The position numbers and the translations under genes are program-made. A stretch of DNA of 51,682 nucleotides from a virus. Lineage: Duplodnaviria > Heunggongvirae > Uroviricota > Caudoviricetes. The notes under the pieces are model-generated. The model was not told the DNA's origin. It saw only the letters and a program-made list of their open reading frames with translations, and made no database searches. The stretch spans positions 1-51,682 of IMG/VR virus record IMGVR_UViG_2651869781_000017; one strand, written 5' to 3'. Shown piece by piece: positions 1 through 46,422 of this stretch (within the stretch, counting starts at the first letter, position 1; each line of letters starts with the position of its first letter).

Positions 1-1254
1 ATGCTGGAACAAATGGGCATTGCCGCGAAGCAAGCCTCGTATAAATTAGCGCAACTCTCCAGCCGCGAAAAAAATCGTGTGCTGGAAAAAATCGCCGATG
101 AACTGGAAGCACAAAGCGAAAGCATCCTCAACGCTAACGCACAGGATGTTGCAGACGCGCGTGCCAATGGCCTTAGCGAAGCGATGCTTGACCGTCTGGC
201 ACTGACGCCCGCACGGCTGAAAGGCATTGCCGACGATGTGCGCCAGGTGTGCAATCTCGCCGATCCGGTGGGGCAGGTAATCGATGGCGGCGTACTGGAC
301 AGTGGCCTGCGTCTGGAGCGCCGTCGCGTGCCGCTGGGGGTGATTGGCGTGATTTATGAAGCGCGCCCGAACGTGACGGTAGATGTTGCTTCCCTGTGCC
401 TGAAAACCGGTAACGCGGTGATCCTGCGCGGCGGCAAAGAAACCTGTCGCACTAACGCTGCAACGGTAGCGGTGATTCAGGACGCCCTGAAATCCTGCGG
501 CTTACCGGCGGGTGCCGTGCAGGCAATTGATAATCCTGACCGTGCGCTGGTCAGTGAAATGCTGCGTATGGATAAATACATCGACATGCTGATCCCGCGC
601 GGTGGGGCTGGTTTGCATAAACTGTGCCGCGAGCAGTCGACAATTCCGGTGATCACAGGCGGTATAGGCGTATGCCATATTTACGTTGATGAAAGCGCAG
701 AGATCGCTGAAGCCCTGAAAGTAATTGTCAACGCGAAAACTCAGCGTCCGAGCACGTGTAATACGGTAGAAACGTTGCTGGTGAATAAAAACATCGCCGA
801 TAGCTTCCTGCCCGCATTAAGCAAGCAAATGGCGGAAAGCAGCGTGACATTACACGCAGATGTAGCTGCGCTGGCGCAGTTGCAGGCAGGCCCCGCGAAG
901 GTGGTGGCTGTTAAAGCCGAAGAGTATGACGATGAGTTTCTGTCATTAGATTTGAACGTTAAAATCGTCAGCGATCTTGACGATGCCATCGCCCATATTC
1001 GTGAACACGGCACACAACACTCCGATGCGATCCTGACCCGCGATATGCGCAACGCCCAGCGTTTTGTTAACGAAGTGGATTCGTCCGCTGTTTACGTTAA
1101 CGCCTCTACGCGTTTTACCGATGGCGGCCAGTTTGGTCTGGGAGCGGAAGTGGCGGTAAGCACACAAAAACTTCACGCGCGTGGCCCGATGGGGCTGGAA
1201 GCACTGACCACTTACAAGTGGATCGGCATTGGTGATTACACCATTCGTGCGTAA
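1..1254 (+). CDS. proA: gamma-glutamyl phosphate reductase (complete, 417 aa)
   Basis: Full-length ORF; translation matches E. coli ProA end to end as remembered (ends ...[15 protein letters not shown]); followed by thrW as in the E. coli chromosome. Confidence 0.93.
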
Positions 1255-1368
1255 ATAAAACCGGGTGATGCAAAAGTAGCCATTTGATTCACAAGGCCAT
1301 TGACGCATCGCCCGGTTAGTTTTAACCTTGTCCACCGTGATTCACGTTCGTGAACATGTCCTTTCAGG

Positions 1369-1444
1369 GCCGATATAGCTCAGTTGGTAGAGCAGCGCAT
1401 TCGTAATGCGAAGGTCGGAGGTTCGACTCCTCTTATCGGCACCA
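1369..1444 (+). tRNA. thrW: tRNA-Thr (anticodon CGT)
   Basis: 76-nt sequence GCCGATATAGCTCAGTTGGTAGAGCAGCGCATTCGTAATGCG...GGCACCA with cloverleaf-compatible arms and CGT anticodon; immediately 3' of proA. Confidence 0.9.
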
Positions 1445-1445
1445 T
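1399..1445 (+). repeat. attL core: 47-bp direct repeat (3' half of thrW) duplicated at 41393-41439
   Basis: Exact 47-bp match ATTCGTAATGCGAAGGTCGGAGGTTCGACTCCTCTTATCGGCACCAT at both positions; flanking bases differ. Confidence 0.85.
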
Positions 1446-1458
1446 TTAAATCAATGAG

Positions 1459-2619
1459 TTACCTAGTATTTAAGTAAATCACGTTCTCCTCTTGTGCCGT
1501 ATTTGTGCCATTGCGACTTATAATCGCATCGATTTTGCTCGCGTGCTCGGTGAGATGCCCGGCTGAAAGGTGGGCGTATCTTTGAACCATTTCGAGAGTT
1601 TCCCATCCTCCCATCTCTTTAAGTGCAAGAAGAGAGACACCGGACTGAACCAGCCAGCTTGCCCAAGTATGCCTCAGGTCATGGAAGCGGAAGTTGCTAA
1701 TGCCTGCCCGCTTTAACGCTCCCTTCCATGCCTTGTTGCTGTCGGTTCTCATCTTCCTTACCGCTGCTGTTTTTGTTCCGTCGCTTCGGTAGGCAGGTTT
1801 GGTGTGGACAAACACCCATCTCTTATGGAGACCCTGCTGTTTTCTTAATATCTGGCATGCGGTTTCGTTAAGAGGAACTCCGATCGCATTGCCAGCTTTT
1901 GTTTCATCAGGGTGCATCCATGCCATTTTCTTATCCAGATCGACCTGTGACCACTCAAGGTCTGTAACGTTGGAACGGCGAAGGCCTGTCGTGATTGCAA
2001 ACATGACCACAGGGAAGAAATGAGGAGCAATTTCTGCAAACAGGCGCTTCGATTCCTCCTCTGTAAGCCATCTGATTCGTCCATTCTTAACGCGTGGTGT
2101 TGATATTTTTGGCGCCCTGTCAAGCCATCCCCATTCAACAGCCATATTGAGAATAGCGCGAAGTATTGCCAGATGCCGCGTCTTCGTTCCTTTGCTTGCC
2201 AGCTTTGGTTTATACTCCGGCACTGGCTTGCCAAGCCGCAAACACCTGTCCCGGCTCATCTCCCAGTTCAGGCGATGGCGGCGGTTTTCCATCCCGTCTA
2301 CCGCCTCCATTATTTTTTCTGTTGTTATGTCAGAGAGAATGGCTTCTCTGAAGTGCAACATCCAGAACGATATAATGCTCTTGTCATCATCAATGGACTT
2401 CTTATCCGATTTCTCACGCAGCCACCGTATGCAGGCTTCCTTGAATAGCTTTTTCGGTGATTCCCCGAGATTTTTTACTCTCCACGCTTCTGCTTTCAGA
2501 CGATCGTGAAGTTCTTGCGCTTGCCTTTTGTCCGATGTTTCAAGAGAGCGTCTAACTCTTGATCCATCTGGCGCGACGAAATCGCAGTGCCACGTGCCAC
2601 CGCGTAGTTTGATTGACAT
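1459..2619 (-). CDS. int: tyrosine integrase (P22/lambda Int family)
   Basis: 386 aa; N-terminus and C-terminal HDLRHTWAS...RYAHL motifs typical of lambdoid integrases; GGAGG RBS before ATG; adjacent to tRNA att site. Confidence 0.9.
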   Translation of the reverse strand: MSIKLRGGTWHCDFVAPDGSRVRRSLETSDKRQAQELHDRLKAEAWRVKNLGESPKKLFKEACIRWLREKSDKKSIDDDKSIISFWMLHFREAILSDITTEKIMEAVDGMENRRHRLNWEMSRDRCLRLGKPVPEYKPKLASKGTKTRHLAILRAILNMAVEWGWLDRAPKISTPRVKNGRIRWLTEEESKRLFAEIAPHFFPVVMFAITTGLRRSNVTDLEWSQVDLDKKMAWMHPDETKAGNAIGVPLNETACQILRKQQGLHKRWVFVHTKPAYRSDGTKTAAVRKMRTDSNKAWKGALKRAGISNFRFHDLRHTWASWLVQSGVSLLALKEMGGWETLEMVQRYAHLSAGHLTEHASKIDAIISRNGTNTAQEENVIYLNTR

Positions 2620-2843
2620 GCTTTAACCTCCTGCACATCAACCGCATTCACCGCGCTATTGTGTCTCACAGACTTAAGCGCCGCAATGCAGTCTGACTTG
2701 CAAATGCGATATGGGCTTTTAGGTTTATCTGGATTTATCTTTGCTGCCTGAAGTCGTCCACTTCGTATCCACTGCGTGATAGTGCCTTTGTCTACCTTCA
2801 GATACGACGCTGCCTCTTCACGAGTGAAGATTTCTTCTTCCAC
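2496..2843 (-). CDS. xis: excisionase-like HTH protein (GTG start, overlaps int 5' end)
   Basis: 115 aa with excisionase/MerR-type HTH (ASYLKVDKGTITQWIRSGRL); position directly upstream of int. Confidence 0.55.
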   Translation of the reverse strand: MEEEIFTREEAASYLKVDKGTITQWIRSGRLQAAKINPDKPKSPYRICKSDCIAALKSVRHNSAVNAVDVQEVKACQSNYAVARGTAISSRQMDQELDALLKHRTKGKRKNFTIV

Positions 2844-2930
2844 CTGGAATCTCCATTTATTGGATTGGTATTATTGCGGTAGGTCTGGATATCTTGATAA
2901 ATGAAAATGCCTCATCGAGTGTGAGGCGGG

Positions 2931-3275
2931 TTAGTCCTTGCGTAGCTCGCTGATTCTTCTGTAAGTCTCTGGTGCTTTGTTCCCGTACGTCTTCATTTCA
3001 GACTTCAACAGAGCAACGAGTGAATCCCATTCGTTGAGGATTCCTTTGAATGCCGGAACGCGCTTTGCAACCTTGTCGAATGAATCTCTGATTTCTGGAA
3101 TCTGCTCAACAAGTGCAACGCATCGCCGGAAATCGGCTGCGTCATGTGGAGCACCGAAGCTATGACCATAGATATTCTTTTTCAGTCCACATGCGATTGA
3201 GGCAAGAGTTGCGCTACTGATACCGACATCGCTAGTCGATTGCCATTTCAAAACCTTCATAGCCAAATCTGACAT
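2931..3275 (-). CDS. hypothetical protein (ea-region accessory)
   Basis: ORF with GGAGA RBS before the internal ATG (MSDLAMKVLK...); longer ORF reaches 3302. Confidence 0.4.
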   Translation of the reverse strand: MSDLAMKVLKWQSTSDVGISSATLASIACGLKKNIYGHSFGAPHDAADFRRCVALVEQIPEIRDSFDKVAKRVPAFKGILNEWDSLVALLKSEMKTYGNKAPETYRRISELRKD

Positions 3276-3301
3276 TTCTTGTCTCCAATAAAAAACCGCC
3301 A

Positions 3302-3469
3302 TCAGGCGGCTTGGTGTTCTTTCAGTTCTTCAATTCGAATATTGGTTATGTCTGCATGTGCTATCTGCGCCCATATTATCCAGTGGTCATAGCAGTCGTT
3401 GATGTTCTCTGTTTCGATAACCCTGTTGAATGGCTCTCCATTCCATTCTCCTGTGACTCGGAAGTGCAT
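3302..3469 (-). CDS. hypothetical small protein (55 aa)
   Basis: ORF MHFRVTGEWNGEPF... with GGAGA RBS; abuts the neighbouring ORF. Confidence 0.3.
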   Translation of the reverse strand: MHFRVTGEWNGEPFNRVIETENINDCYDHWIIWAQIAHADITNIRIEELKEHQAA

Positions 3470-3549
3470 TTATCATCTCCATAAAACAAAACTCGCCGTA
3501 GCGAGTTCAGATAAAAGAAATCCATCAATTGGTTAGGGTTTTTGTAATT

Positions 3550-3741
3550 CTACGAATTATGTTGTTTTTTAGCTTCAGCTTTCCATTCATCAAAGGCAGT
3601 GTCTTTGTTCATGGTGCTGATATTGATCTTACGGTCAATATCATATACACGCCACTCACCGTTAGGCCTCTCTTCGCATCTAACTAAGTATGAATTGCCA
3701 TTAATATCTATGCGTCTGTCTATTTGCATGAACATTTTCAA
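3550..3741 (-). CDS. hypothetical small protein (63 aa)
   Basis: ORF in co-oriented early-left operon; AT-rich. Confidence 0.3.
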   Translation of the reverse strand: MKMFMQIDRRIDINGNSYLVRCEERPNGEWRVYDIDRKINISTMNKDTAFDEWKAEAKKQHNS

Positions 3742-3852
3742 TTTTCGAATCCTCTTTAATATGCATTTTTTGCTATTTCAGTAGTTTACTATTGATGAGT
3801 CGTTATTATACACACTTCATTAATGCAAGCATCTTTATGCTATGCTACTAAT

Positions 3853-4134
3853 TTAGCAATTGATATTCACCTTTATCGCGTATACCTTTACCGGTTTATC
3901 ACCGAAGTGGGGGTGTGTGATTGTTTTCACTTCATATCCTCCATACGGAACGTTAATTCTGCGGCTGGAATCGTCGCGCTTCGGATATCCCTTTGTGATA
4001 ATCAGGCGGTCATACTTACGATTAACGAGGCGTTTATTCCAGTAGTCATTGCACAGGCGATACTCTTCCGTTTTCTCTCCACGAATTATGGCATCGAAGT
4101 ATTCACCTTTAACGGCTAGTTGCAGGTTAGCCAC
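3853..4134 (-). CDS. ASCH/DUF3850-like small protein
   Basis: 93 aa; N-terminal LQLAVKGEYFDAIIRGEKTEEYR pattern resembles ASCH-fold proteins. Confidence 0.4.
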   Translation of the reverse strand: MANLQLAVKGEYFDAIIRGEKTEEYRLCNDYWNKRLVNRKYDRLIITKGYPKRDDSSRRINVPYGGYEVKTITHPHFGDKPVKVYAIKVNINC

Positions 4135-4996
4135 GGTTAACCTCCTGCGGAGGTTCCGGTAGCGGCATCCAATTGATTACATCGCATTCAGGGATGCTGA
4201 TATCATCACCAAGCCACCCTTGACCTTCAGACCAGCATTGCACGTAATACCCGTATTTTGTGTTCACTACGCACCACTGCGCGTCGTTCGGCGTCCGCTC
4301 ACTACAGCTTATCCAACCATCCGGAGTTACCGGAACTTGCGGAATGGCTGTCTGCTCTCGAACGTCATTAGGCGCTATAGGTTCTGCTGCCAACTGACTG
4401 GCATATTTGTTAATGGTAACGATAAGCTCTTGCTCAGCCTCATCCAGACAATCACCGATACCTCGCCTGTCACCGTCAAAATCATCGAAATCGGCACGAA
4501 TCTTGGCAACCTTCTGGATTGCGGACAACACCTCACTAGGAATTACCGGATAGTTGGTTGACGTTTCCGCGATTTCCCGAAAATTATTGGTTGACGAATT
4601 CTTGTTTTCCCGAAAGTTTCCGGACTGAAGCATGGCGGCGCGGCAGGCGTTCCAGCCTCTCACCTCTGCAATAGCGGCAACAGCATCAACCGCGTACATG
4701 CTAAGAGGATTAGGCATTGGTTTTTCTTCCGGTACTACTGGAACGGGTGGAGCGGCGTAGACCTCAATAATTCCATTATCAATAGGCCATTCTCCATCCT
4801 TGAGGTAGTCACTTGTGCCGTCAACTTGCTGTTCTGCAATGTGGAATGCACCTATTGGTTTTGCTTCCAGCGATGCCAGAGCAATTCGTGCCAGTTCTTC
4901 CGCTTCTTCTGCTGGCAGTACAACGTTGCTACCAGGTCCGTATGTTTCGCGCCACTGTTTGATTGTCAGCAGTCGCTCTTTGGTAATAGTGGTCAT
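4127..4996 (-). CDS. hypothetical protein with C-terminal DUF551-like domain
   Basis: 289 aa; C-terminal DGWISCSERTPND...WMPLPEPP resembles the DUF551 domain common in enterobacterial prophage ea regions. Confidence 0.45.
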   Translation of the reverse strand: MTTITKERLLTIKQWRETYGPGSNVVLPAEEAEELARIALASLEAKPIGAFHIAEQQVDGTSDYLKDGEWPIDNGIIEVYAAPPVPVVPEEKPMPNPLSMYAVDAVAAIAEVRGWNACRAAMLQSGNFRENKNSSTNNFREIAETSTNYPVIPSEVLSAIQKVAKIRADFDDFDGDRRGIGDCLDEAEQELIVTINKYASQLAAEPIAPNDVREQTAIPQVPVTPDGWISCSERTPNDAQWCVVNTKYGYYVQCWSEGQGWLGDDISIPECDVINWMPLPEPPQEVNRG

Positions 4997-4999
4997 GTG

Positions 5000-5149
5000 T
5001 TAGTCCTCTGTAGCAGGTGATACGCCGTAGTTGCATTCTTCATAGAATATGTCTCTGCCTATTTCTTCGGCATCCTCTGGCGTGTCTGCTTCAAACTCAA
5101 CAACCTTGCAATCATTAAATCCTTCGATAGTCACGATGTACTTAGCCAT
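5000..5149 (-). CDS. hypothetical small protein (49 aa)
   Basis: Short ORF tightly packed between flanking genes (4-bp and 2-bp gaps). Confidence 0.25.
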   Translation of the reverse strand: MAKYIVTIEGFNDCKVVEFEADTPEDAEEIGRDIFYEECNYGVSPATED

Positions 5150-5150
5150 A

Positions 5151-5885
5151 TCACTCTCCTTTGATGCGAATGTCAGCGTCAGACATCATATGCAGATACT
5201 CAACTGCATCCTGAACCCATTGACCGCCAATCCCGTAATAGCGATGCGTAATGATGTCGATAGTTACTAACGGGTCTTGTTCGATTAACTTCCGCAGAAA
5301 CTCTTCCAGGTCACCAGTGCAGTGCTTGATGACAGGAGTTTTCCCAGGATGGCGAACAACAAGAAACTGATTTCCGACTTCACGGACTTCGTTGCTTTCC
5401 AGTTCTGCAATGCGCTTCTCTGCGGATTCCAACGCCGCAACCAATTCGTCTACAGTTCCGGCAGCTTGCAGTGCGTAATCGGTAATAGCCATCTCATGAT
5501 CAATTTCAGTACCGTTCTCATTCGTTGAGGTGATAGCAAAATAATCAGAGTCGATTTCGTTATCAGCTAAGTGGCGTAGCGTATCGGCAACAAGCCGGCC
5601 GTTTTCGATTAGCAGCTCCCCTACCGTAAGCGCAATATCCTCGTTCTCCTGGTCGCGGAGTTTTATGTATTGCTGGTTTCTTTCCCGTTCATCCAGCAGC
5701 GCCAGCACGGTTTCTGGTCCGGTCAGAAATTTGAAGGCGTTGAGCGCATCAATATCCACACCGTAATCTTTAAGTTCCTGTTCAGTTAACAAATCATCAT
5801 CAGCTGACAACATTAACAGGCGTTCCATTGCTGGAATTGCACGTTCCGCCGCCTCACGCAGTGCCTGGTAATTAATTTCGCTCAC
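5151..5885 (-). CDS. hypothetical acidic protein (244 aa)
   Basis: ORF in early-left operon; start overlaps upstream gene stop. Confidence 0.45.
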   Translation of the reverse strand: MSEINYQALREAAERAIPAMERLLMLSADDDLLTEQELKDYGVDIDALNAFKFLTGPETVLALLDERERNQQYIKLRDQENEDIALTVGELLIENGRLVADTLRHLADNEIDSDYFAITSTNENGTEIDHEMAITDYALQAAGTVDELVAALESAEKRIAELESNEVREVGNQFLVVRHPGKTPVIKHCTGDLEEFLRKLIEQDPLVTIDIITHRYYGIGGQWVQDAVEYLHMMSDADIRIKGE

Positions 5886-6313
5886 TGGTTGCCTCCTTTG
5901 CGAAGCTGGGCAGCAAAGTCACGGATAGTGTCATCAAGGTCTGGGCACAACAGATGGTCAGCAAACATCTCCACGCCCTGCGCACGTACTTCAGCCAGGA
6001 AAGCATCGGTGGCTGGGGTGTTAAGTGAAAAGTCCTGTCGGCCTGATTTCAGATACGCAATGGCGATCTTTGTTGCTGCACATTCGACAGCGAATTTCTC
6101 TTTTTCAGCAGCCAGCGCCGCGCACTTTGCTTCAAGGTTATCAATCGTGATTCCAGCAGAACGGCACTCCCGCAACGCCGTTTCCAGTTTTGATTCAAGT
6201 TCACCGAACTTACGGACAAGATATTCAGCGTTTGTTTCGTTAACCTTTAAATCTCGTGGGATGCATTTACCTTTCAGAAATCCATCCATCTCAATTAGTG
6301 AGATTTGTTTCAT
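5882..6313 (-). CDS. hypothetical coiled-coil protein (143 aa)
   Basis: ORF with ATGA overlap to the upstream small ORF. Confidence 0.4.
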
Positions 6314-6474
6314 TTCTTCCCACTCCGCAACATCGCATTCAGATATTTGTTTTGATTAACTGATGGAAAAGAATTTCTCTTAAGCAATTCCTCTCTCGAT
6401 GGCATTGGCTTTACGCGTTGGCGAATAATCATTTCTGCCGGAAGAATGCCGGGATTGTATGCAAGTCCTCTCAT
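6310..6474 (-). CDS. hypothetical small protein (54 aa)
   Basis: Short ORF with ATGA-type overlap to downstream gene. Confidence 0.25.
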
Positions 6475-6490
6475 GATTAATTCCTCTTTG

Positions 6491-6805
6491 TTAATTTATT
6501 CGTATGCCTGCTCTTTCTTCATCGAGTTTTTTTAGCTTGTATCTCATAGCCCTTACTGAATAAATTGAGCGGCAGGTTGCAATTGCTATTTCTTCTGCGG
6601 AGAACTTACCGAAAAGTGATACTTCGGCTCTTGTCCAGCGTCTTCCGCGAAGTCGGCTAACAATGTCAGCGCCAATCCTTGTTGCTTTCGCCATTACTGC
6701 TTTTTCAGTCCTTTCCAGTTTTTCAGCGATAACTTCAACTGGCATTGTCGCCGCTACTTCGCGCAAGAAATCGACTTCCCATTTCTCCCATGGAGTCTTT
6801 TTCAT
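6491..6805 (-). CDS. hypothetical protein (104 aa)
   Basis: ORF in recombination-module neighbourhood. Confidence 0.4.
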
Positions 6806-6816
6806 AGGCGATACCG

Positions 6817-7299
6817 TTATTTGATAAGAAGTGAAGGTTTCCCAACCTTGAGTTGAGCGCCGGGGATATTTATTCCTGCTTTTAGTTGGTGCTTGATTGC
6901 CAACTTGTCGGCTTTAATTGTCGTTTCAAACTCAACGTATTCAGGAGGAATGGCGCTTGAGTCGATGATTTCTACAGTTTCTAACGGTTTGCGGATTGTT
7001 ACCTGGTGAATACCTGCTCGAATCTTTTTCTTGCCAACCATTTCAAGCGATGACGCTATATATGATTTGATGCTGTCAATTTTATTTTGAATTACTGCTG
7101 CTCGTTCATTCAGTGACTTTGCCTCTTCCTTGAGGCGTTCAGCATAACCAGATTCATTTTTAATGACGGAAAGAAGTTGCTCTATTTTATCGGTAAATTC
7201 TCCTTCCATGCCTTCTATTGTGTCAGCAATCATCTCTGGTTCTAAATCTGAATCCATCAATTTTGCGTATTCATTGGCAATTTCATACAGTTTGCTCAC
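6817..7299 (-). CDS. Gp157-like protein (recombination-module accessory); probable GTG start
   Basis: About 160 aa helical protein immediately downstream of RecT; GGAGG RBS before GTG at 7299. Confidence 0.4.
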   Translation of the reverse strand: MSKLYEIANEYAKLMDSDLEPEMIADTIEGMEGEFTDKIEQLLSVIKNESGYAERLKEEAKSLNERAAVIQNKIDSIKSYIASSLEMVGKKKIRAGIHQVTIRKPLETVEIIDSSAIPPEYVEFETTIKADKLAIKHQLKAGINIPGAQLKVGKPSLLIK

Positions 7300-8194
7300 T
7301 GGCAACCTCCAGTTTCGCTTTGCATTCTGCATAAATGGCTTGTACGTTCTGCTGCAATTTCATCCCAGATGTCAGGCGATATGCTTCTGCAAAATATCGC
7401 TTCAAATCATCCATGTTTTCAGCCTGAGCCATTTCATCACAAAGAAGTTGTGCTTTATCCGTTATTTCCTGCTGGCGTTTCCGTTCATCTTCGCGGATAT
7501 CTTCCTCTGATTTGTGCGGCATAACTGGTTCAGTCCACACACCTTCTTCTTCGTTTAGTACGTGAATAGCACTATCAAGACGTGATGCCTTAGGCCAATA
7601 CTTGCTTGCACGCTTTACGACCGTCTTTCGCGCCATCTCATTCCAGTGATTTACCCATGGTCCTTTATCGCTGAATGCCGCCTTGCTTGTTTTCCTTACA
7701 GCCTCAATTTCAGCCAGACTCATCTCTTCCGTTAGATAATCACCTGCTGGCGTCTTAACTGTGCAGTAAACGCCAACGATATCACCACGATCACCGAAGG
7801 CGTTGTATTTATGGGTTGGTGCTTTATCAAGCCCGTTTGACTCATAGGTATCGTTAGCATGAACAAGTTTTGCCTGACCCCATGAGATAACACCAGACTC
7901 CATTGCAATATGGAGCAATCCCATATAGCTGATATCAAGGCAAACCATGCCGTCGCGAGGAACCAGATAAGCCAGTTTGCTGGCAGGGTTTAAGGTGATG
8001 CCGATCGCCGCAACATTGATGATGGCGTTCTGTGCGCTGGTTGGATTTGCCAGTGCCGTTTTAGCCAGGTAATCATTTTTCTGGAAATACTGAATTGCAA
8101 ACTGGCTTTCCTTAGCCCATGTCACCGTCTGTTCAGTCAATGCTCCGCAGAATAACTGCTCTTGCTGTTTAACGAATTCAACGATATTGCTCAT
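7283..8194 (-). CDS. recT: RecT-family single-strand annealing recombinase
   Basis: 303 aa; conserved RecT core (AIINVAAIGITLNPASKLAYLVPRDG...) and acidic C-terminus. Confidence 0.8.
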   Translation of the reverse strand: MSNIVEFVKQQEQLFCGALTEQTVTWAKESQFAIQYFQKNDYLAKTALANPTSAQNAIINVAAIGITLNPASKLAYLVPRDGMVCLDISYMGLLHIAMESGVISWGQAKLVHANDTYESNGLDKAPTHKYNAFGDRGDIVGVYCTVKTPAGDYLTEEMSLAEIEAVRKTSKAAFSDKGPWVNHWNEMARKTVVKRASKYWPKASRLDSAIHVLNEEEGVWTEPVMPHKSEEDIREDERKRQQEITDKAQLLCDEMAQAENMDDLKRYFAEAYRLTSGMKLQQNVQAIYAECKAKLEVASEQTV

Positions 8195-8502
8195 GCAGCT
8201 TCTCCATAAATATGTCTGCGTTTGAATATTGCGAAGGCATATTCAGCCTTAACTCTTTCGGTTATTGCATCCCAGAACCATTCAGCGGCTTTTTCCTGAT
8301 AGTTACAGTCATCATCTTCCAGCCAGTCGATAGCGTCCTTAGTGTGTTCATCTGGTTTATATGAGCGAAGCATTTCGCTTATTGGGTCGCAACGTTTGCA
8401 GAGGCGATCAACTTCACTGTTGATTCGTTCGTAATCTTCATCAGTAAAGCTTGCGATTATTTGCGATATTTCACGCTTATCATTCAGAGTCAGAATCATC
8501 AT
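8191..8502 (-). CDS. hypothetical protein (103 aa) in lambda gam-equivalent position
   Basis: ORF directly upstream of recT; function not recognisable from sequence. Confidence 0.4.
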   Translation of the reverse strand: MMILTLNDKREISQIIASFTDEDYERINSEVDRLCKRCDPISEMLRSYKPDEHTKDAIDWLEDDDCNYQEKAAEWFWDAITERVKAEYAFAIFKRRHIYGEAA

Positions 8503-8583
8503 CTTTCTCCTGTTCTTTGTGCTGATTGAGCATTTTGTTCATCTGACGAATGAATTCTTCGTCTGACCAGTTATCTGTAAAAC

Positions 8584-8736
8584 TCATTTCCTGCGATACC
8601 ACGGAAGGTTGATAGCTGATTTCATCGCTTTATTTGCTTCAAGCCACATTTTGGAATCACCAATAAATCTGGCTATTACTGCTTTGTTCTGTGCAGCACG
8701 AAGCATCTGGTGATTGATGGCTATTTCATTGCGCAT
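8584..8736 (-). CDS. small protein in kil-equivalent position (50 aa)
   Basis: Short ORF overlapping cIII 3' end; assignment by position only. Confidence 0.3.
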   Translation of the reverse strand: MRNEIAINHQMLRAAQNKAVIARFIGDSKMWLEANKAMKSAINLPWYRRK

Positions 8737-8852
8737 AATAAGACCTCAACTCTTTTCCATCCGTCACGTAATTTACGGGTGATTCGTTCAAGTAAAGATT
8801 CATTTAATTGGAAGGCACCCATGCGAGCGCCTCCCGCGATTGCGTAAATCAT
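8721..8852 (-). CDS. cIII: CIII-like protease inhibitor (43 aa)
   Basis: Translation MIYAIAGGARMGAFQLNESLLERITRKLRDGWKR... closely matches lambda CIII core (ESLLERITRKLRDGWKRL). Confidence 0.7.
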   Translation of the reverse strand: MIYAIAGGARMGAFQLNESLLERITRKLRDGWKRVEVLLCAMK

Positions 8853-8876
8853 GGGTGGTTCCTTATGTTGGTTTTA

Positions 8877-9845
8877 TTAGTAGGTTATTTTTGTTGCGAA
8901 TACTTCGCCTTTTACGATGGCTGTTATGATATTTTTAGCAACATCTTCTGATGCGCCAACCTTGATAAGGTCAGCAAGTATTTTGTTATTTACTTCTTTC
9001 CGGTGAGCTTTATCCTTTGCTCTACGCTCTTCTTCTTCCTTGATTCTTTTTTCTTCTGCTATTCTGGCTTGCTCTTTTGCTTCAGCCTCGCGCAGGATTC
9101 GTTCTGCCTCCTCCTGTGCTTTACGGCGTTCTGCTTCAATTGCCGCATGCTTTTCTCTTTCAGCTCGTTCTGCTGCCTCTTTTGCTTCGCGCTGTGCTCG
9201 TTGCTCGGCTTCAATGCGTTCACGCTCTGCACGTTCCGCTGCGGCCTTAGCTTCTGCTTCTCGCCTTGCTGCTGCTTCAATTTCGGCTTTTGCCTTTGCT
9301 TCGGCTTCAGCTCTGGCTTTCTCTTCAGCTTCTCTTTTTAAGCGTTCTTCATGCTCTCGCTTTTCCTGCTCAGCTTTGAGTCTTGCCTCTTCTCTTTGGC
9401 GGTCAAATTCGCGATCCATCAAAATCGCTATTTCATGGTCAGACTCAATTTGCTTTGCGAGAGCTTCAGCTGCTGCCTTAGCTTCTTCTTCGGCTTTAAT
9501 CCGCGCCTGTTCTTCCTCATAATCAGTAAGAGGCTGGCGCGCCTTGGCTTTCAGTTCATCAAGGCGATCACGCACTGTCTTGCGGTTGGCATCAATTAGC
9601 TTTGGAATTTCCTTAAGTTCAGCAACAAGGTCTTTGCCAAGACCATCGAGATATGTTTTCGTCTGCGCAACTTTATACGCCAGAGAAGCGATCTCCTTTC
9701 TGCCCTTTGCCGTTGTGATATCAGGCACAAAGGACATAACTTCACGTTCAACCTTTTGGAGAATTTCTTCAATCTGGTCGGCAGACTGAAATACAGTCAT
9801 TGCATTTGCTTTTTCAATAACAACTAAATCTGTTACTTCACTCAT
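8877..9845 (-). CDS. hypothetical protein with long EA/R/K-rich low-complexity coiled-coil region
   Basis: 322 aa; about 110 residues of AEAKAKAEIEAAARREAEAKAAAERAERER-type repeats; GGAGGA RBS. Confidence 0.5.
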   Translation of the reverse strand: MSEVTDLVVIEKANAMTVFQSADQIEEILQKVEREVMSFVPDITTAKGRKEIASLAYKVAQTKTYLDGLGKDLVAELKEIPKLIDANRKTVRDRLDELKAKARQPLTDYEEEQARIKAEEEAKAAAEALAKQIESDHEIAILMDREFDRQREEARLKAEQEKREHEERLKREAEEKARAEAEAKAKAEIEAAARREAEAKAAAERAERERIEAEQRAQREAKEAAERAEREKHAAIEAERRKAQEEAERILREAEAKEQARIAEEKRIKEEEERRAKDKAHRKEVNNKILADLIKVGASEDVAKNIITAIVKGEVFATKITY

Positions 9846-9857
9846 ATATCCTCCGTC

Positions 9858-9885
9858 AAAAAATTGCCCTCACATTGGAGGGCAA
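9858..9885 (-). terminator. intrinsic terminator within early-left operon
   Basis: Perfect 8-bp stem (TTGCCCTC/GAGGGCAA) with 6-nt loop followed by T6 on the minus strand, immediately upstream of the 8877-9845 RBS. Confidence 0.5.
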
Positions 9886-9976
9886 AGAAGATTTCCAATA
9901 ATCAGAACAAGTCGGCTCCTGTTTAGTTACGAGCGACATTGCTCACATAGCAGACTCGCAAATCTGCTATAGGCGC

Positions 9977-10138
9977 TTATTCGCATCGCATGACAACATC
10001 AAATTTTTCGAGATTACTTTGTCGCAACAATCCTTCTTCGACGCGGTCAGCTTTTCTATAATTATCAAATTCGAAATGTTTAATTACTTCTTTCGTTTCT
10101 CGCTCTATAACTTCAACGATGTATTTCTTATTCATCAT
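9977..10138 (-). CDS. hypothetical small protein (53 aa)
   Basis: ORF with ATGA overlap to the upstream gene stop. Confidence 0.3.
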   Translation of the reverse strand: MMNKKYIVEVIERETKEVIKHFEFDNYRKADRVEEGLLRQSNLEKFDVVMRCE

Positions 10139-10425
10139 TCTTCCCAAAGAGCTTTGCTGATTGCTGACTGTGCTTTCGATACTTCATCAGGATAATGGTC
10201 ATTCCAGTTTTGCTTGTATGCCTTGTTTAGCATCGCTTGCAGGGCATTTAAAAGGTCAGGTGCTGCCGCTATTAGATTGGCATCTTCAATGCATTGAACT
10301 TCCTCACAGATTGCAATATACGAACGCCAGCCTGCGCCATTTTCAAGTGAGTCTGCCTGGATGATTTTAATCTCATCGCCATCCATCATTATTTCCCACT
10401 TACCTTCGGTACCTTTAAATTCCAT
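10135..10425 (-). CDS. hypothetical protein (96 aa)
   Basis: ORF in pL operon. Confidence 0.4.
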   Translation of the reverse strand: MEFKGTEGKWEIMMDGDEIKIIQADSLENGAGWRSYIAICEEVQCIEDANLIAAAPDLLNALQAMLNKAYKQNWNDHYPDEVSKAQSAISKALWEE

Positions 10426-10464
10426 GTTAGCCTCTGTTGTTTATGCCAAAAATAAAGGCCACCA

Positions 10465-10716
10465 TCAGGCAGCCTTGTTGTAAATGTTGCAGGTATCAAG
10501 TAAGTAATTAGATGGAGCGCCATAAATTATGAATTCATCGTTTGTCGGGTCCATCTCCATCTCTTGGCCTATTGCCATTCTTGCGTCAGTGTCATCAGCG
10601 GCGAAGCATAAAACAGCCCACGCACCCATTGTTTTAAAAAGAACTGCAATTGGCTGTGGTTTTACTGAATTTGCGTTAGCGCGAAAATCACAAATCGCAC
10701 TTTCATGAAATTCCAT
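10465..10716 (-). CDS. hypothetical protein (83 aa)
   Basis: ORF in pL operon. Confidence 0.4.
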   Translation of the reverse strand: MEFHESAICDFRANANSVKPQPIAVLFKTMGAWAVLCFAADDTDARMAIGQEMEMDPTNDEFIIYGAPSNYLLDTCNIYNKAA

Positions 10717-10724
10717 ATCTCACC

Positions 10725-10889
10725 TCAAATAAGTGGTTTGCCGCGAAAATAAATACGTTCCCACCAAGTTCCGTATCTATCTATCCAGTTACACCAATCA
10801 TCGACACTCCATTTTGTTGTGTCGCATTTTGGCAATTGGCATGAATATCTACCTTCTTTGTAAAGTCGGCGTTTGACTTTCTTGAGCAT
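10725..10889 (-). CDS. hypothetical Cys-rich small protein (54 aa)
   Basis: ORF MLKKVKRRLYKEGRYSCQLPKCDTTKWSVDDWCNW... immediately downstream of N. Confidence 0.3.
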   Translation of the reverse strand: MLKKVKRRLYKEGRYSCQLPKCDTTKWSVDDWCNWIDRYGTWWERIYFRGKPLI

Positions 10890-10897
10890 GGCTCACC

Positions 10898-11203
10898 TCA
10901 ATCGTAATAAGCTGGAATTGATTTTCCGCGTCGCTTCTGGCGGCCTGAGCAGGTCACACCCATTTCACTGCGTGGCTTGCGGTAGTAAATACGGTTCTGT
11001 TTACGCTCAACTTCTTCTGCCTTCTTGCAGCGAAGGCTTCCTAGTGATGCTGCTTTGTCTGCTCTGACGCAACCAGAGAGCTTTAGCGCAATTTTTCGCG
11101 CCAGTCGCTGTTCTTGCATTGCCTGCTCACGTTGAGCCTGTCTGCGTGCTCTGCGGCGATTTCTGGCGTTATCGTCAGCCAGATATGTAATGACTACTGC
11201 CAT
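10898..11203 (-). CDS. N: antitermination protein N (P22 gene 24 equivalent)
   Basis: 101 aa; N-terminal arginine-rich motif; C-terminus ...GVTCSGRQKRRGKSIP matches lambda N ...GITCSGRQKIKGKSIP; GGAGG RBS. Confidence 0.85.
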   Translation of the reverse strand: MAVVITYLADDNARNRRRARRQAQREQAMQEQRLARKIALKLSGCVRADKAASLGSLRCKKAEEVERKQNRIYYRKPRSEMGVTCSGRQKRRGKSIPAYYD

Positions 11204-11310
11204 GTTGACCTCCGATGATTGACTTTGGCGGTGACGCGCCGGGTGCTTATCTTCCGGTTGCCGTCGTGCAGCTGCACTTCACGTCACCCCAAAGCCAACT
11301 ACTCTTTGGT

Positions 11311-11352
11311 TCCCGCATTTCGGCGGGACAATCCCATCAATGTTAAAGAGCC
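11311..11352 (-). promoter_or_regulatory. nutL (boxA GGCTCTTTAA plus boxB hairpin)
   Basis: On minus strand boxA-like GCTCTTTAA followed 14 nt later by hairpin TCCCGC-CGAAAT-GCGGGA, identical to the hairpin at nutR. Confidence 0.7.
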
Positions 11353-11399
11353 TGCCAATCTGTTCCGTTTGGCTTCCAGCGTCCTGCTGATGGCTAAAG

Positions 11400-11484
11400 A
11401 ATACTGTAGGTATTTTATTGTGTAAATACCAAAGGTATTTATTTTTGATGAAATAATGATAAACAAATGAATACAAAGGATATT
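11400..11484. promoter_or_regulatory. OL operator cluster (three AATAC-N5-GTATT sites) with pL
   Basis: Palindromes at 11400-11414, 11425-11439 and 11470-11484 (third has one mismatch); same motif as at OR. Confidence 0.65.
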
Positions 11485-11570
11485 TATTTTTTTGCTGTCT
11501 GCTTGTTCAGTGATTTTTATGCGGGATATGTGAAGTGGATCCCGATAGCTATTGCTGCCGGGATTATGGG

Positions 11571-11939
11571 TTAGTCAGCGAAGGTTAAGACGAGAATTAC
11601 CTTAATGATGTCTGCTACAACAGACACGGCCATAGATAAACCAAAGACGATCCAAGCCACAGTGATGTCTTCACTACCATCGTATAGAGTTCCGTAATCA
11701 CTGGTGTAAGGCGTAAATGTCGCGCCTTGATACAATAGGTATAAGCTTGATCCATAGAGGATAAATGCAGATATCCCTTGTATTGCTATGATCACAAGAA
11801 TCATGAAACGAGCTGATCTATGCGCCCAAGCCTGGCTTATTTTTTCTGATAGAGATTTCGCAATAAAAGCATGCGCTAAGCCGTAAATTGTCGAGATTGC
11901 CAACATCCCAAAAAAGCTTGCTATAGCGGTTCCAACCAT
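11571..11939 (-). CDS. small multi-pass membrane protein co-transcribed with cI (rexB-position cargo)
   Basis: About 122 aa from ATG 11939 (129 aa if the TTG at 11960 overlapping the cI stop is used); four hydrophobic segments; AAGGGG RBS. Confidence 0.6.
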   Translation of the reverse strand: MVGTAIASFFGMLAISTIYGLAHAFIAKSLSEKISQAWAHRSARFMILVIIAIQGISAFILYGSSLYLLYQGATFTPYTSDYGTLYDGSEDITVAWIVFGLSMAVSVVADIIKVILVLTFAD

Positions 11940-11956
11940 AAGCGCCCCTTGCGTGA

Positions 11957-12673
11957 TCAAACCAGCCTTAGTTTTGTCTCAATTGCAACGCCTATAATCT
12001 TGCAGTTTCCATTGATTGGCACGAGAGGCCATGCAGGGTTAAGTCCCTTGAGGTATTTATTTCCGCCGTCGATTATCAGCTTCTTGAATGTTGCTTCGTT
12101 AGAGTCAGAAAGTTTTGCTATGACCAAGCTGCCGTTGATCGCCTCCCTTCCGGTATCGAAAAGAACGAATGTTCCCTCTGGAATGCTTAACCCAACCGGT
12201 GCCGTCATTGAATCACCTTCCACTTTAAGCCAGAACGCATTACCTTGAATATGCGCGTCAGACTCAAGCCAAACATCTATGTCTTTAATGGTGTATGGTT
12301 CGCATGCTTCACACCACGAGCCAGCCTGGATACTGCTTAACACCGGATACCTCTTTCCTGCTCTGTATTCCCCTGCATACCTTACGTTGGCATCGCTCTT
12401 AAGGCTTTCTGCCTGTTCTGCAACCTTGGCAGCAATTGACTGGCTAAAATCAGCAATTGAGACTTGCAACAGTCGTGCAAAACCAGATGCAACCTCAACG
12501 TTTAGCGCGTTTCTGCCATTAAGATAATGCCCTACCGCTCCTTGGGTGATACCCAGTTCATCAGCGATTGAGTATTGGGTTATTCCCAATTCTTTCTTTT
12601 TTGACTCATACAAAGCCTTAAGCCGCTTAGCGTCTTCGAGCTGTTCTGTCGTCAGTGATTTTTTATTTTCCAT
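11957..12673 (-). CDS. cI: CI-type prophage repressor (HTH_XRE plus S24 LexA-like peptidase domain)
   Basis: 238 aa; N-terminal HTH (QYSIADELGITQGAVGHYLNG) and C-terminal S24 self-cleavage domain; divergent from cro across operator region. Confidence 0.88.
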   Translation of the reverse strand: MENKKSLTTEQLEDAKRLKALYESKKKELGITQYSIADELGITQGAVGHYLNGRNALNVEVASGFARLLQVSIADFSQSIAAKVAEQAESLKSDANVRYAGEYRAGKRYPVLSSIQAGSWCEACEPYTIKDIDVWLESDAHIQGNAFWLKVEGDSMTAPVGLSIPEGTFVLFDTGREAINGSLVIAKLSDSNEATFKKLIIDGGNKYLKGLNPAWPLVPINGNCKIIGVAIETKLRLV

Positions 12674-12708
12674 AGCTTAATTCTAATAGCTAAGGTACTT
12701 AAACTAAA

Positions 12709-12748
12709 AATACCCTGAGTATTGATTGCTTTGAATACCTGTAGTATT
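12709..12748. promoter_or_regulatory. OR operators (AATAC-N5-GTATT palindromes) with divergent pRM/pR
   Basis: Sites at 12709-12723 and 12734-12748, 25 bp centre to centre, between the cI and cro starts. Confidence 0.7.
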
Positions 12749-12779
12749 CTTTGTTCATGGTTAATAACGGAGAGTGCAT

Positions 12780-12974
12780 ATGATTCGAATGACACTTGCC
12801 GATTACGCCAAAATCCATGGACAGGCTAAAGCAGCCAGTGACTTTGGTGTAATCCAGTGCGCTATCAGCAAGGCCATTCTGGCAGGCCGTAACATCATGG
12901 TTACGGTAAAGCCTGATGGCAGTGTGATTGGAGAGGAAGTTCGTCCTTTCCCAAGCAACAAGAAAAACAAATAG
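12780..12974 (+). CDS. cro: Cro repressor (lambda Cro fold)
   Basis: 64 aa [33 protein letters not shown]...FPSNKK closely parallels lambda Cro; GGAGAG RBS. Confidence 0.85.
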
Positions 12975-41392: not shown

Positions 41393-41439
41393 ATTCGTAA
41401 TGCGAAGGTCGGAGGTTCGACTCCTCTTATCGGCACCAT
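41393..41439 (+). repeat. attR: duplicated 3' 47 bp of thrW
   Basis: Exact copy of 1399-1445; lacks the tRNA 5' half so it is not a functional tRNA. Confidence 0.85.
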
Positions 41440-42263
41440 CAAGAAAATCAATAACTTAGCTTAACTTCTCTAAGAAATTGTATCTTCTGTTATCACTTAC
41501 AAACGCCTATACGTTGTTATGGGCTTTTGGTAGTTTAACACGTATGGGCGAGTAGTTCCCAGGCTCAACCTCGTAACAAGTTCCTTTGAAGCTGGAAGAC
41601 GTGCCACCGTCTCTAAACCTTCTACCAAAACTCTTAGCAAGATGTTCCACACCTGGCGCGGTGTCCAATGATGCTACACGTCGTGAGACGTTGCAGAGGA
41701 TAAACAGGCTAAATGATGGGAAGAGTTTTAAGTGCAATAGTGGATTAAAGCCCACCTCTTCAAAACCTAACTTGATCGGGAAAGAATCAAGCTCTAGCAC
41801 GGTTTCGTCCACCGGAGTACAACGGGTGCCTGATAAGAGAAGAACTGCTAAGACTTCATAGCTTTTGTGAAAAAGCCCTTTTTAGTGGATACGCCTACGG
41901 CGCTTATTTTTTGGTATAACCATCAAAGGCGCTTTATGGCTCCTATTGTCTTGAAAATGTATCTTTACTTGTATTGTGTTTTATGCGTAGTCTCCCTGTG
42001 TAGTATGTAACTTGTTAATTTTCATATGAATACAGAGGCACACGATGAAAAACATTGCAGCTATCAAACGTAATAACCGCAAGATTCACGCTCGTAAGTT
42101 CCTGTCTACGCCAGAGGGAAAAGCCTGGCTAGAGCGTAAACAGCGAGAGAACGAAGAAAGAAAACTCCTTAGTGAGTTGAAATGGCTTAAGGATTGAATC
42201 ACCAGTAGGCGCATAACACATCCAGCGATCAAAGATGTGTTTATGCGCCTGATAGTGAAATTA

Positions 42264-42422
42264 TTAAAGTTTTTTAGTTAATGTAGCCATTGCATGAACG
42301 ATGATCGCTAGTGAATCGATTTTATCTCGAGGGGTAAAATAGATGAGGTATATGATGGTAACAATTACAGCTAAAGTAATTGTGGTTCTGCAGGTTTTTA
42401 AAATGGATGAGATAAAGCGCAT
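42264..42422 (-). CDS. small hydrophobic protein (52 aa)
   Basis: ORF with G-rich RBS; single hydrophobic helix (TITLAVIVTIIYLIYF). Confidence 0.3.
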   Translation of the reverse strand: MRFISSILKTCRTTITLAVIVTIIYLIYFTPRDKIDSLAIIVHAMATLTKKL

Positions 42423-42748
42423 AGATACCCCCTATTGATTTAACAATAGCAAAGTATCATTTATTTTTTATTGCACGCAACATGCAAATTTTCACATATA
42501 ATAGTTTACTATTCACTTTGTATGGTGTCAACAAGATGATGTGTTGTTTTGTTTGATTTGTTCAAGATAATGTTTCATTTTCTCATCTATATAACTTGTG
42601 TTTTAGATAATTTCACTAATTGTAAAAGTTACGTATTGCTTAATAGCTACCTTTTTATCTGAAATCGGCGCAGACGTGATCAATGTTTAACGCGAAGATC
42701 AGCGGCGTCAGGTCCACGCAGCGACAATTCTCAAATATCAAGGAGGCA

Positions 42749-43288: not shown

Positions 43289-43940
43289 AAAATCCTCTTA
43301 ATGTGTCGATTTGGCACTACTTCAATGCAAATGAGTATACCGTATTCATTTGGTCTGTTTCAAGCCTTATGGGTACGGAATATTACACGATTTAGCTGTA
43401 TTCATTTGGTATGCCTAATGGATACACAGGGGGATAGATTAAATGTTGTTCTGTTTATACAGGTTTATTTGTTAGATCAACAATTTGGCATTTCTAAACA
43501 GATGTTTGAACGTTGCCAAATGTCTTGACAACACAAGAAAAGGGCTTGCTATGCCACGCATTACACGAAATAAGGCTATAAAAACAAAATAAATTTTAAA
43601 ATTTGCACAAACGAGAGAACTCATTCGACAAATAATAGATTAATTTTTAGCCAACAATTTATGATGGTGCTCTGTAAGCCGCACTACACAAGGATTTGCG
43701 AAAGTGATGTAAAAGTGAAGAAAGTGAGAATTGCCCTTTTAAGCTACTTTTTCATTGAATTTTTAGTATGGAATTACACAGGGAATAGAGAGCATTATTC
43801 TATGATTTACACAGGGAATATAGGGGGATTATGGCACACACATAGAAAGGCATTACACAGAGTGCTATGTGACAAATGGATGTAACGAGAGGTTACATTC
43901 AGCTATCTGAAATGCTCTCTGTAAGAAAGTTGGTAGTAAC

Positions 43941-46411: not shown

Positions 46412-46422
46412 TAAGGAGGGTT

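Follow-up and report, generated by a model that had tools for sequence, protein, structure and literature searches.

In lambda and the Shiga toxin (Stx) phages, the exo-xis region has been described as non-essential and expressed early (PMC7093339, PMC8614690). Ea22 of lambda and Stx phages is expressed early, forms a tetrameric coiled-coil and favours lysogeny (PMC7093339, PMC10834534, PMC4195576), and its C-terminal domain (CTD) in PDB 8DSX is a mixed alpha/beta dimer; for lambda Orf55, modelling has suggested a T7 Gp2-like binder of RNA polymerase, a view that its authors call speculative (PMC8614690). In phage HK446, gp27 is Oad2; it binds to the OLD nuclease of P2, stops it from cleaving tRNA, relieves the toxicity of OLD in recB cells and restores phage plating, while an HK75 homologue with 54% identity to Oad2 was reported not to inhibit P2 OLD (bioRxiv 10.64898/2026.07.10.737580). 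Here we performed a computational analysis of a 51,682-nt stretch of viral DNA (Caudoviricetes; IMG/VR record IMGVR_UViG_2651869781_000017, positions 1 to 51,682), the whole of which is called the window below, and focused on a block of ten genes at 2931-6805. Our analyses suggested with high confidence that this block forms the dispensable accessory part at the distal end of the early-left operon in a 40-kb P22-like prophage, the equivalent of the P22 'ea' region and the lambda 'exo-xis' region. The ten genes, in transcription order, are the following (aa, amino acids; pI, isoelectric point; HTH, helix-turn-helix).

6491-6805, minus strand: 104-aa basic protein (pI 10) with two HTH repeats of LuxR / sigma-70 region-4 type, first gene after Gp157/RecT
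6310-6474, minus strand: 54-aa basic DUF2737 protein (Pfam PF10930) of the HK97 gp38 / P22 orf56 / HK620 hkaI family
5882-6313, minus strand: 143-aa member of the P22 EaE / HK97 gp37 / HK446 gp27 (Oad2) family (BLASTP, phrog_614)
5151-5885, minus strand: Ea22, 244 aa (PF13935), starting at a GTG that overlaps the stop before it by 4 nt
5000-5149, minus strand: 49-aa very acidic orphan (pI 4.05, 14 D/E; phrog_1997, E 3.5e-16)
4127-4996, minus strand: 289-aa acidic Eaa-type protein in three parts (PF04448)
3853-4134, minus strand: 93-aa basic ASCH-like (PUA-fold superfamily) protein, with a GTG start and an 8-nt overlap with the previous gene
3550-3741, minus strand: 63-aa orphan (61 aa from ATG; phrog_16329, E 8.5e-49)
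3302-3469, minus strand: acidic 55-aa orthologue of lambda Orf55 (lambdap35), with 94.5% identity over 55/55 residues
2931-3275, minus strand: 114-aa basic all-helical orphan, last gene before xis (phrog_1229, E 2.3e-50)

The window opens with proA (1-1254), followed by a tRNA-Thr(CGU) gene (thrW) at 1369-1444, the only match in an Rfam scan of 1200-12800, which found no RNA family inside the block. A 47-bp exact direct repeat of the 3' part of the tRNA occurs at 1399-1445 and at 41393-41439, and these copies are identified as the attL and attR sites delimiting a 40.0-kb prophage in E. coli thrW. The integrase (1459-2619, minus strand) shares 99% identity with that of HK446, whose attP is annotated as thrW-like, and the late half with its morphogenesis genes is 95-96% identical to the P22-like phages E212, CUS-3, Kapi1 and HK620. 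A matching arrangement is present beside proA-proB-phoE in the E. coli assembly GCA_001265575.1. From these comparisons we assign the prophage to the P22-like lambdoid type. Its minus strand carries every gene from an N-like open reading frame (ORF) through int. The elements around the block are the following.

2496-2843: xis, flanking the block on the distal side
6817-7299, minus strand: Gp157 / 'Mu Gam-like end protection' gene (160 aa in the independent gene call)
7283-8194, minus strand: RecT (PF03837, E 2.7e-32), upstream of the Gp157 gene
8584-8736, minus strand: kil
8721-8852, minus strand: cIII
10898-11203, minus strand: Arg-rich N-like ORF
11351-11342 and 11327-11312, minus strand: nutL-like site upstream of the N-like ORF, with boxA-like GCTCTTTAAC and a CCCGC/GCGGG hairpin
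11426-11398, minus strand: candidate pL promoter TTTACA-17-TATTCT from a promoter scan
11957-12673: LexA-type repressor gene, upstream of the pL-like region

Since the Gp157/RecT, kil, cIII and N-like genes lie upstream on the same strand together with pL- and nut-like elements, the block was placed at the distal end of the early-left operon. A preliminary description of this DNA had located an early-left ea region between xis and the recombination module, and the positions of xis (2496-2843) and Gp157/RecT (6817-8194) agree with it. The putative nutL site reflects our own reading against the known boxA/boxB pattern of lambda and P22. The Gp157 gene matched PF05565 (Sipho_Gp157) at E 3.7e-38 and phrog_253 ('Mu Gam-like end protection') at E 5.6e-54; its longest ORF, 6817-7332, overlaps RecT by 50 nt, and the independently called 160-aa version overlaps it by 17 nt.

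Ten minus-strand ORFs of 104, 54, 143, 244, 49, 289, 93, 63, 55 and 123 aa, in transcription order, fill 2931-6805 at a coding density of ~94%. An independent gene caller, in an E. coli assembly of the same arrangement, returned 104/54/143/244/49/289/93/61/55/114 aa, which are the same ten genes. The 'about a dozen' ORFs announced earlier are therefore ten in number, though co-oriented and 49-289 aa long as described. Junctions in the same order measure +16, -4, -4, +1, +3, -8, +111, +80 and +26 nt, the last being reckoned from the 114-aa start. The tight coupling reported before holds for the first seven genes, which lie within 16 nt of each other, but true stop/start overlaps number three only and the last three genes are spaced more loosely. 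Shine-Dalgarno (SD)-like motifs precede eight of the ten starts, the exceptions being the 104-aa gene, which lacks one, and the 143-aa gene, where just a weak GGGAAG occurs. As for the 123-aa ORF, its likeliest start is the tenth codon (114 aa), because GGAG lies 8 nt upstream of it, phrog_1229 aligns from residue 10, independent calls and other records begin there, and a hairpin covers the longer start.

Each of the ten ORFs had a full-length match to a PHROG family (E 1e-16 to 1e-68), and all displayed purifying selection against divergent homologues, with a ratio of nonsynonymous to synonymous differences per site (pN/pS) of 0.06-0.62. That some of the short ORFs (49, 54, 55 and 63 aa) are chance frames in transcribed spacer is scarcely credible in the light of these data. 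The idea draws on their shortness, on the absence of an NCBIfam match for any of the ten ORFs, and on the 49-aa ORF, whose relative was found in one phage record only, Klebsiella phage ZX1, at 73% identity and unannotated there. Yet all four show pN/pS of 0.07-0.6 (0.25 for the 63-aa and 0.17 for the 49-aa ORF, where synonymous sites approach saturation), pS was 0.8-0.9 against pN 0.16-0.20 in the two comparisons of greatest divergence, and each of the four has a full-length PHROG or Pfam match, a correctly spaced SD-like motif and a prediction by the independent caller.

The opposite strand was considered as well. The longest antisense ORF, 3823-4119 on the plus strand opposite the ASCH-like gene, matched phrog_20945 at E 1e-43 and was nevertheless rejected as a gene: its pN/pS was 1.5-2.2, against 0.14 in the ASCH frame, so that no constraint acts in that frame and it is read as a shadow ORF. 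Probably, phrog_20945 was itself built from mis-called shadow ORFs. Other antisense ORFs had no PHROG match or a marginal one (4220-4561, phrog_23547, E 0.00098, with no passing stretch).

The block is a mosaic. By megablast, 578 phage records and 3981 of the 5426 complete E. coli genomes contain pieces of it, and 633 of the matching places were on plasmids; the P1-like phage RCS47 holds a DUF551/Ea22/ASCH set. No record covers 80% or more of the block, with best values of 46% among phages and 58% among complete E. coli genomes. Identity breakpoints were located inside the 143-, 244- and 289-aa genes. Identity of ~95% extends over the first 349 nt of the 143-aa gene in the comparison with HK140, and over the first 212 nt only in that with HK446. 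In the 244-aa gene, a 5' part that is widely shared (nt 1-274) is joined to a 3' part like that of lambda (nt 469-735), and the 289-aa gene draws on at least three sources. These alignments showed exchange of gene and sub-gene modules among genomes of lambdoid, P22-like and P1-like phage-plasmid types.

PF13935 matched residues 2-93 of the 244-aa protein (the N-terminal Ead/Ea22 segment) at E 2.1e-25 and 90 bits against a cut-off of 27, and residues 164-244 share 93% identity with the lambda Ea22 CTD of 8DSX (E 5e-47), the only PDB sequence match for proteins of the block taken singly; the 289-, 104-, 123-, 93-, 143-, 63-, 49- and 54-aa proteins, searched in the same way, gave no meaningful match. 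Aligned over its full length, the 244-aa protein shares 57% identity with lambda Ea22; its central segment is unlike that of lambda and 62 residues longer. The loop conserved in the family as HRYYGVGG reads HRYYGIGG here, and pN/pS is 0.18-0.58. The gene also lies where Ea22 is expected in the pL operon, with the recombination genes on one side and xis on the other. We identify 5151-5885 as a true Ea22 by this combined match of sequence and location.

Upstream of Ea22 stands a gene that may link the block to host defence. By BLASTP, the 143-aa protein aligned to HK446 gp27 (Oad2) at 57% identity (E 1e-58), a value that rises to ~95% in the first 60 residues; phrog_614 matched at E 2e-49, pN/pS was 0.06-0.25, and relatives occur in 270 phage records. 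We confirmed that gp27 is the Oad2 gene by recomputing the reported 54% identity to the HK75 homologue. In a seven-sequence alignment, the conserved motifs of the family, including QLRKGGNQ, are present in the 143-aa protein and the middle segments are variable. Synteny is in agreement: the gene overlaps, and lies immediately downstream of, the DUF2737 gene in the early-left operon, the stop of the latter overlapping the 143-aa start by 4 nt, and in Gally, HK140, HK446, HK75, HK620 and P22, too, an EaE/gp37-type gene directly follows a DUF2737 gene. The 54-aa DUF2737 product matched PF10930 over its full length (E 3.4e-32), shares 77% identity with P22 orf56 and shows pN/pS of 0.07-0.6; a literature search found no functional work on DUF2737. 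In addition, the alignments of phrog_14548 and of phrog_368 take in the 143-aa protein as well as its neighbour Ea22 (5151-6313), so fused EaE-Ea22 forms exist in other phages, which is also stated in the OLD preprint (bioRxiv 10.64898/2026.07.10.737580). Such fusions hint at a shared pathway.

OLD is triggered by phage proteins that disable or displace RecBCD, such as lambda Gam, T7 Gp5.9 and HK75/HK446 Gp33 (bioRxiv 10.64898/2026.07.10.737580). Gabija, in turn, is licensed by Mu Gam. It is possible, and we put it forward tentatively, that an Oad2-type inhibitor co-transcribed with Gp157/RecT neutralises an OLD-type RecBCD guard in this prophage; of the mechanisms considered for the block this is the most specific, and the Oad2-like gene is its best lead. 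Because the HK75 homologue was reported inactive, the specificity of such inhibitors appears to be narrow. A further step, which we regard as rather doubtful, is that the 143-aa protein, possibly with the DUF2737 protein and Ea22, is an inhibitor of an OLD-family or RecBCD-guard nuclease with new specificity, and that at least one of the 49-, 63- or 114-aa orphans is a new anti-defence or host-takeover protein. If so, the 'pro-lysogenic' phenotype of Ea22 would be part of the same defence-evasion circuit.

The preliminary description had called the region a hotspot for anti-defence genes, and for this the Oad2 homologue at 5882-6313 is one concrete support, though PADLOC defence-system models matched none of the ten ORFs significantly (the sole line was PglZ at E 0.0099, with no passing stretch). 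In its stronger form, the idea makes the block a dedicated anti-defence island, in which most or all ten proteins inhibit host immunity, including restriction-modification (RM), OLD-, Gabija- or retron-type RecBCD guards and CBASS. Recombination-linked loci have been proposed as anti-defence hot spots (bioRxiv 10.64898/2026.07.10.737580), the equivalent regions of related phages hold Abc2, Lar-like and dATP/dGTP pyrophosphohydrolase genes, the small acidic 49- and 55-aa proteins resemble protein inhibitors or DNA mimics, and the rapid modular turnover would fit as well as the Oad2-family gene itself. We nevertheless consider an island of this kind unlikely: besides 5882-6313, no ORF resembles a characterised anti-defence protein, the documented phenotype of Ea22 is developmental, the tandem-HTH and ASCH-like proteins look like nucleic-acid binders, and no ORF motif was found in the supplement of the 200-gene accessory-gene screen of Silas et al.

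Ea22 leads to the opposite proposal, that the block is chiefly a developmental tuning module acting on the lysis-lysogeny decision, on the timing of induction and on host physiology (cell cycle, replication, transcription). Both Ea22 and Orf55 are common to lambda, the block contains an HTH protein, the exo-xis literature describes influences on lysogenisation, on induction and on survival of the host, and Orf73/TraR-type modulators of RNA polymerase occur in the same region of other phages. We hold this to be doubtful too, since the lambda/Stx core genes orf60a, orf63, orf61, orf73 and ea8.5 are absent, the Oad2 homologue points to defence antagonism, and the Ea22 phenotype could be an indirect read-out of the interplay between host defence and recombination.

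The reading of the block as a distal accessory segment is compatible with a mixture of functions. In the model that we favour, pL would drive transcription of the block within minutes after infection or induction, with N antitermination carrying RNA polymerase past kil and cIII, RecT-Gp157 and the ten genes towards xis and int, and the three hairpins in its last 600 bp would be read through by antiterminated polymerase only. Overlapping or abutting stop and start codons would couple translation of the first seven genes. The products would represent a set of small host- or phage-modulating proteins instead of one machine: Ea22 may, by homology, bias development to lysogeny, the EaE/Oad2-family protein would most likely bind and silence an OLD-type (ABC-ATPase/TOPRIM) abortive nuclease set off by interference with RecBCD, an activity expected of the adjacent Gp157 (Gam-like)/RecT pair, the tandem-HTH protein would bind DNA, and Orf55, the ASCH-like and Eaa/DUF551 proteins and four orphans may act on host targets.

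Several points weigh against this model. Six of the ten genes are without an experimentally characterised relative. The 143-aa protein, with 57% identity to active Oad2, has 61% identity to the inactive HK75 homologue and differs from both in the variable segments, so that the link is one of family only. The Gp157 gene is 'Mu Gam-like' according to PHROG and phage record annotation and not according to Pfam, and the pL, nut and terminator assignments are, for this prophage, pattern matches alone.

With regard to the remaining genes, the earlier statement that none has a recognisable function was too strong, given that Ea22, Orf55 and a tandem-HTH protein were recognised. The profile and structure annotation that it had proposed yielded Ea22, the Oad2 family, Orf55, HTH units, an ASCH motif and DUF551, leaving four orphans. 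Half of the ten proteins are acidic (pI 4.05-5.3), and neither Pfam, PHROG nor NCBIfam assigned a housekeeping phage role to any ORF, such a role for all of them being what would have spoken against the earlier account.

The first gene, 6491-6805, was identified as coding for a predicted tandem-HTH DNA-binding protein. The repeat W-x3-E..L..EIA..RS..SV occurs twice in the 104-aa protein and three times in its 150-aa homologues, and the family profile matched the NarL DNA-binding domain at E 0.0045 (the single sequence had no PDB match). An AlphaFold2 (AF2) model with a mean predicted local distance difference test score (pLDDT) of 84 contains two three-helix units, for which Foldseek gave weak matches to bipartite HTH proteins (E>0.1). 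The protein belongs to phrog_323 ('transcriptional regulator, D5-like'), shows pN/pS of 0.07 and is found in 16 phage records only, all at 91% identity or more; in both Gally and HK140 its gene adjoins the Gp157/RecT module. The identical Gally protein (locus L001 6019-6333) is labelled 'Anti-RecBCD protein 1, similar to P22 Abc1'. Identity with Abc1 was rejected: BLASTP gave no alignment to P22 Abc1 at E<=100, and tblastn against the P22 genome had no match. What is left is a positional analogy alone, both P22 Abc1 and the 104-aa protein being HTH proteins beside a recombination module, and it looks as if the Gally label was given by position. Likeness to the HK639 'regulator' beside a Gam-like gene was examined too, and no similarity was found.

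The middle genes bear out the ASCH-like, DUF551-like and acidic proteins noted earlier, with PF04266 at its cut-off, PF04448 at E 1.6e-9 and the acidic proteins counted above. For the 93-aa protein, PF04266 scored 21.2 bits, exactly the cut-off, over profile positions 1-59 of 103 only. Among 41 diverse relatives, ASCH was matched at E<=0.01 in four and DUF3850 in two. The protein contains G19-E-K21-T-E-E24-Y-R26, which corresponds to GxKxxExR, reportedly the ASCH signature of Iyer, Burroughs and Aravind (2006); among the 41 relatives K21 does not vary, and G19, E24 and R26 each reach a conservation of at least 90%. The family comprises 878 representative clusters, pN/pS is 0.14, and a RefSeq protein 92% identical is named 'ASCH domain-containing'.

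The 289-aa protein is modular, with an N-terminal part (~1-90), a middle part (~94-228) and a C-terminal DUF551 (227-284) that matched PF04448 over profile positions 1-68 of 68 with 38.9 bits against a cut-off of 22. The PHROG matches follow the same division: phrog_3323 and phrog_5117 cover the N-terminus, phrog_14306 the middle and phrog_60 the whole. Full-length identity to P22 EaA is 26%, relatives named 'DUF551 domain-containing' or 'Eaa protein' form more than 8000 clusters, and a protein of E. coli matches it at 100% identity. An imperfect 33-nt tandem duplication (78% identity) at 4554-4618 was the sole repeat found in the block, and it adds an 11-aa repeat (NFRE...) to the linker between the middle module and DUF551. 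A literature search found no functional study of DUF551 or Eaa. Regarding the 49-aa protein, membership of DpnD/PcfM was rejected (PF14207, 15.2 bits against a cut-off of 25, E 0.022), and the best PDB match, mitochondrial NDUFA10 at E about 0.03, was judged to be chance.

The last three genes differ from the others in spacing, and a terminator-like hairpin follows each of them within the last 600 bp.

3489-3508, minus strand: terminator-like hairpin and T-run downstream of the 63-aa gene, 8-bp stem with 4 GC pairs, then TGTTTTATGG
3293-3312, minus strand: terminator-like hairpin straddling the Orf55 stop, 8-bp stem with 5 GC pairs, then TTTATTGG
2909-2927, minus strand: terminator-like hairpin between the 114-aa gene and xis, 6-bp stem with 4 GC pairs, then ATTTTCATTT

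The 63-aa gene, in an AT-rich segment (GC 0.38), is preceded by a 111-nt gap, and its relatives were found in three phage records only; the HK639 homologue, with 67% identity, is followed by an annotated terminator near int. The product of 3302-3469 is recognised as lambda Orf55 from its near-identity, with phrog_676 at E 1.3e-37 and pN/pS of 0.24-0.48. Its gene is the second-last before xis here and the last in lambda, and in HK140 an annotated rho-independent terminator likewise straddles the 3' end of the Orf55 homologue. Relatives of the 114-aa protein form 63 clusters, all from Enterobacteriaceae, with pN/pS of 0.09-0.28. Its AF2 model (pLDDT 93.7) has seven helices. Foldseek found no fold match for it in PDB (best E 4, template modelling (TM) score <0.36), and the BFVD matches were uncharacterised proteins of unrelated viruses only, for example one of Clavibacter phage CN1A at TM 0.80. 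Some relatives (P0014, P0016, P0030, P0031, P0050 and P0053) are chimeras including fragments of Kil, ERF, Ea22 and dATP/dGTP pyrophosphohydrolase, so that recombination joints fall inside the 114-aa gene.

This part of the block could also be read as containing morons, that is, the AT-rich 63-aa gene and perhaps Orf55 and the 114-aa gene would be expressed autonomously from the repressed prophage for the benefit of the host. GC falls to 0.37-0.39 at 3250-4000, the distal genes are 26-111 nt apart with a hairpin after each, the HK639 homologue of the 63-aa gene is similarly terminator-flanked, and a perfect TATAAT is located in the 111-nt gap upstream of the 63-aa gene. However, a promoter scan of the minus strand at 3742-3852 found no acceptable -35/-10 pair, and, as we read the sequence, neither a usable -35 nor an extended -10 accompanies the TATAAT. 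Co-orientation with pL means that read-through expression suffices, and the 63-aa sequence shows no evident signal peptide or membrane segment. We regard autonomous expression as very unlikely, and prefer to treat the three genes as the loosely spaced end of the early-left operon.

Several neighbouring features were recorded outside the block. The upstream early-left stretch also contains several genes of unknown function. Between cIII and the N side, 8877-9845 (minus strand) codes for a 322-aa protein rich in E, K, A and R with long, charged, helical-looking repeats, whose only matches were phrog_1376 and phrog_21365. Directly downstream of the repressor gene, 11571-11960 (minus strand) codes for a 129-aa multi-pass membrane-like protein in the place of rexAB in lambda and of gene 38 in Sf6/HK446; by this analogy, it may be an exclusion gene expressed by the prophage. 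Past attR, 41500-51682 is a foreign-looking segment with a resolvase-type serine recombinase (42749-43288, minus strand) and several ORFs of no obvious identity, including one of 342 aa at 48512-49540; the segment may be a second element integrated in tandem at thrW.

The region is of an already-known kind, and every gene belongs to a catalogued phage family. Its use lies in being a compact test set, in which an uncharacterised Oad2-family variant stands beside a Gp157/RecT module and a lambda-type Ea22. This arrangement suits asking whether the variable segments set the specificity of OLD inhibitors, and whether the effect of Ea22 is linked to defence evasion. Two database labels were corrected in addition: the 'Abc1-like' name is unsupported, and phrog_20945 apparently sits on an antisense shadow ORF. 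The 114-aa protein adds a confidently predicted fold without a PDB match.

Compared gene by gene, the closest DNA relatives of the block are HK022, HK140 and Gally, none of which holds the whole set; HK446 is likewise among the nearest for single genes. HK022 has the 114-aa gene (95% aa identity) and the ASCH-like gene (87%) in common with it, and HK140 and Gally the 104-aa, DUF2737 and 143-aa genes as well as Gp157/RecT, at 79-100% aa identity. In lambda and Stx phages, the exo-xis region (orf60a-orf63-orf61-orf73-ea22-ea8.5-orf55) occupies the same position, from the recombination genes to xis at the end of the pL operon. Yet only Ea22 and Orf55 are in common: the prophage lacks the lambda core orf60a/orf63/orf61/orf73 as well as ea8.5, lambda has no counterpart for eight of the ten genes, and the recombination module is Gp157/RecT in the prophage, whereas it is Gam/Bet/Exo in lambda.

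In P22, which has the same virion type and operon layout, the ea region runs eaC-eaG-eaA-eaI-eaD-eaF-orf45-eaE-orf56 and is followed by abc2/abc1/erf. Here, the counterparts of the DUF2737 gene, the 143-aa protein and the 289-aa protein are orf56, EaE and EaA, respectively, and the Ea22 segment recurs in EaD, although identity of these counterparts is mostly low or partial; EaG matches only the C-terminal 25 residues of the 55-aa Orf55 protein. The abc1/abc2/erf genes of P22 are absent from the prophage, and P22 in turn is without relatives of the ASCH-like, 49-aa, 63-aa and 114-aa genes. Finally, HK446, which has the same thrW integrase as the prophage, carries in gp28-gp27 the same two-gene unit with the same 4-nt overlap at the same place in the operon, as do HK97 (gp38-gp37) and HK75 (gp29-gp28). 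Relative to HK446 Oad2, the 143-aa protein is 32 residues shorter and differs at about 64-100 and 113-135.

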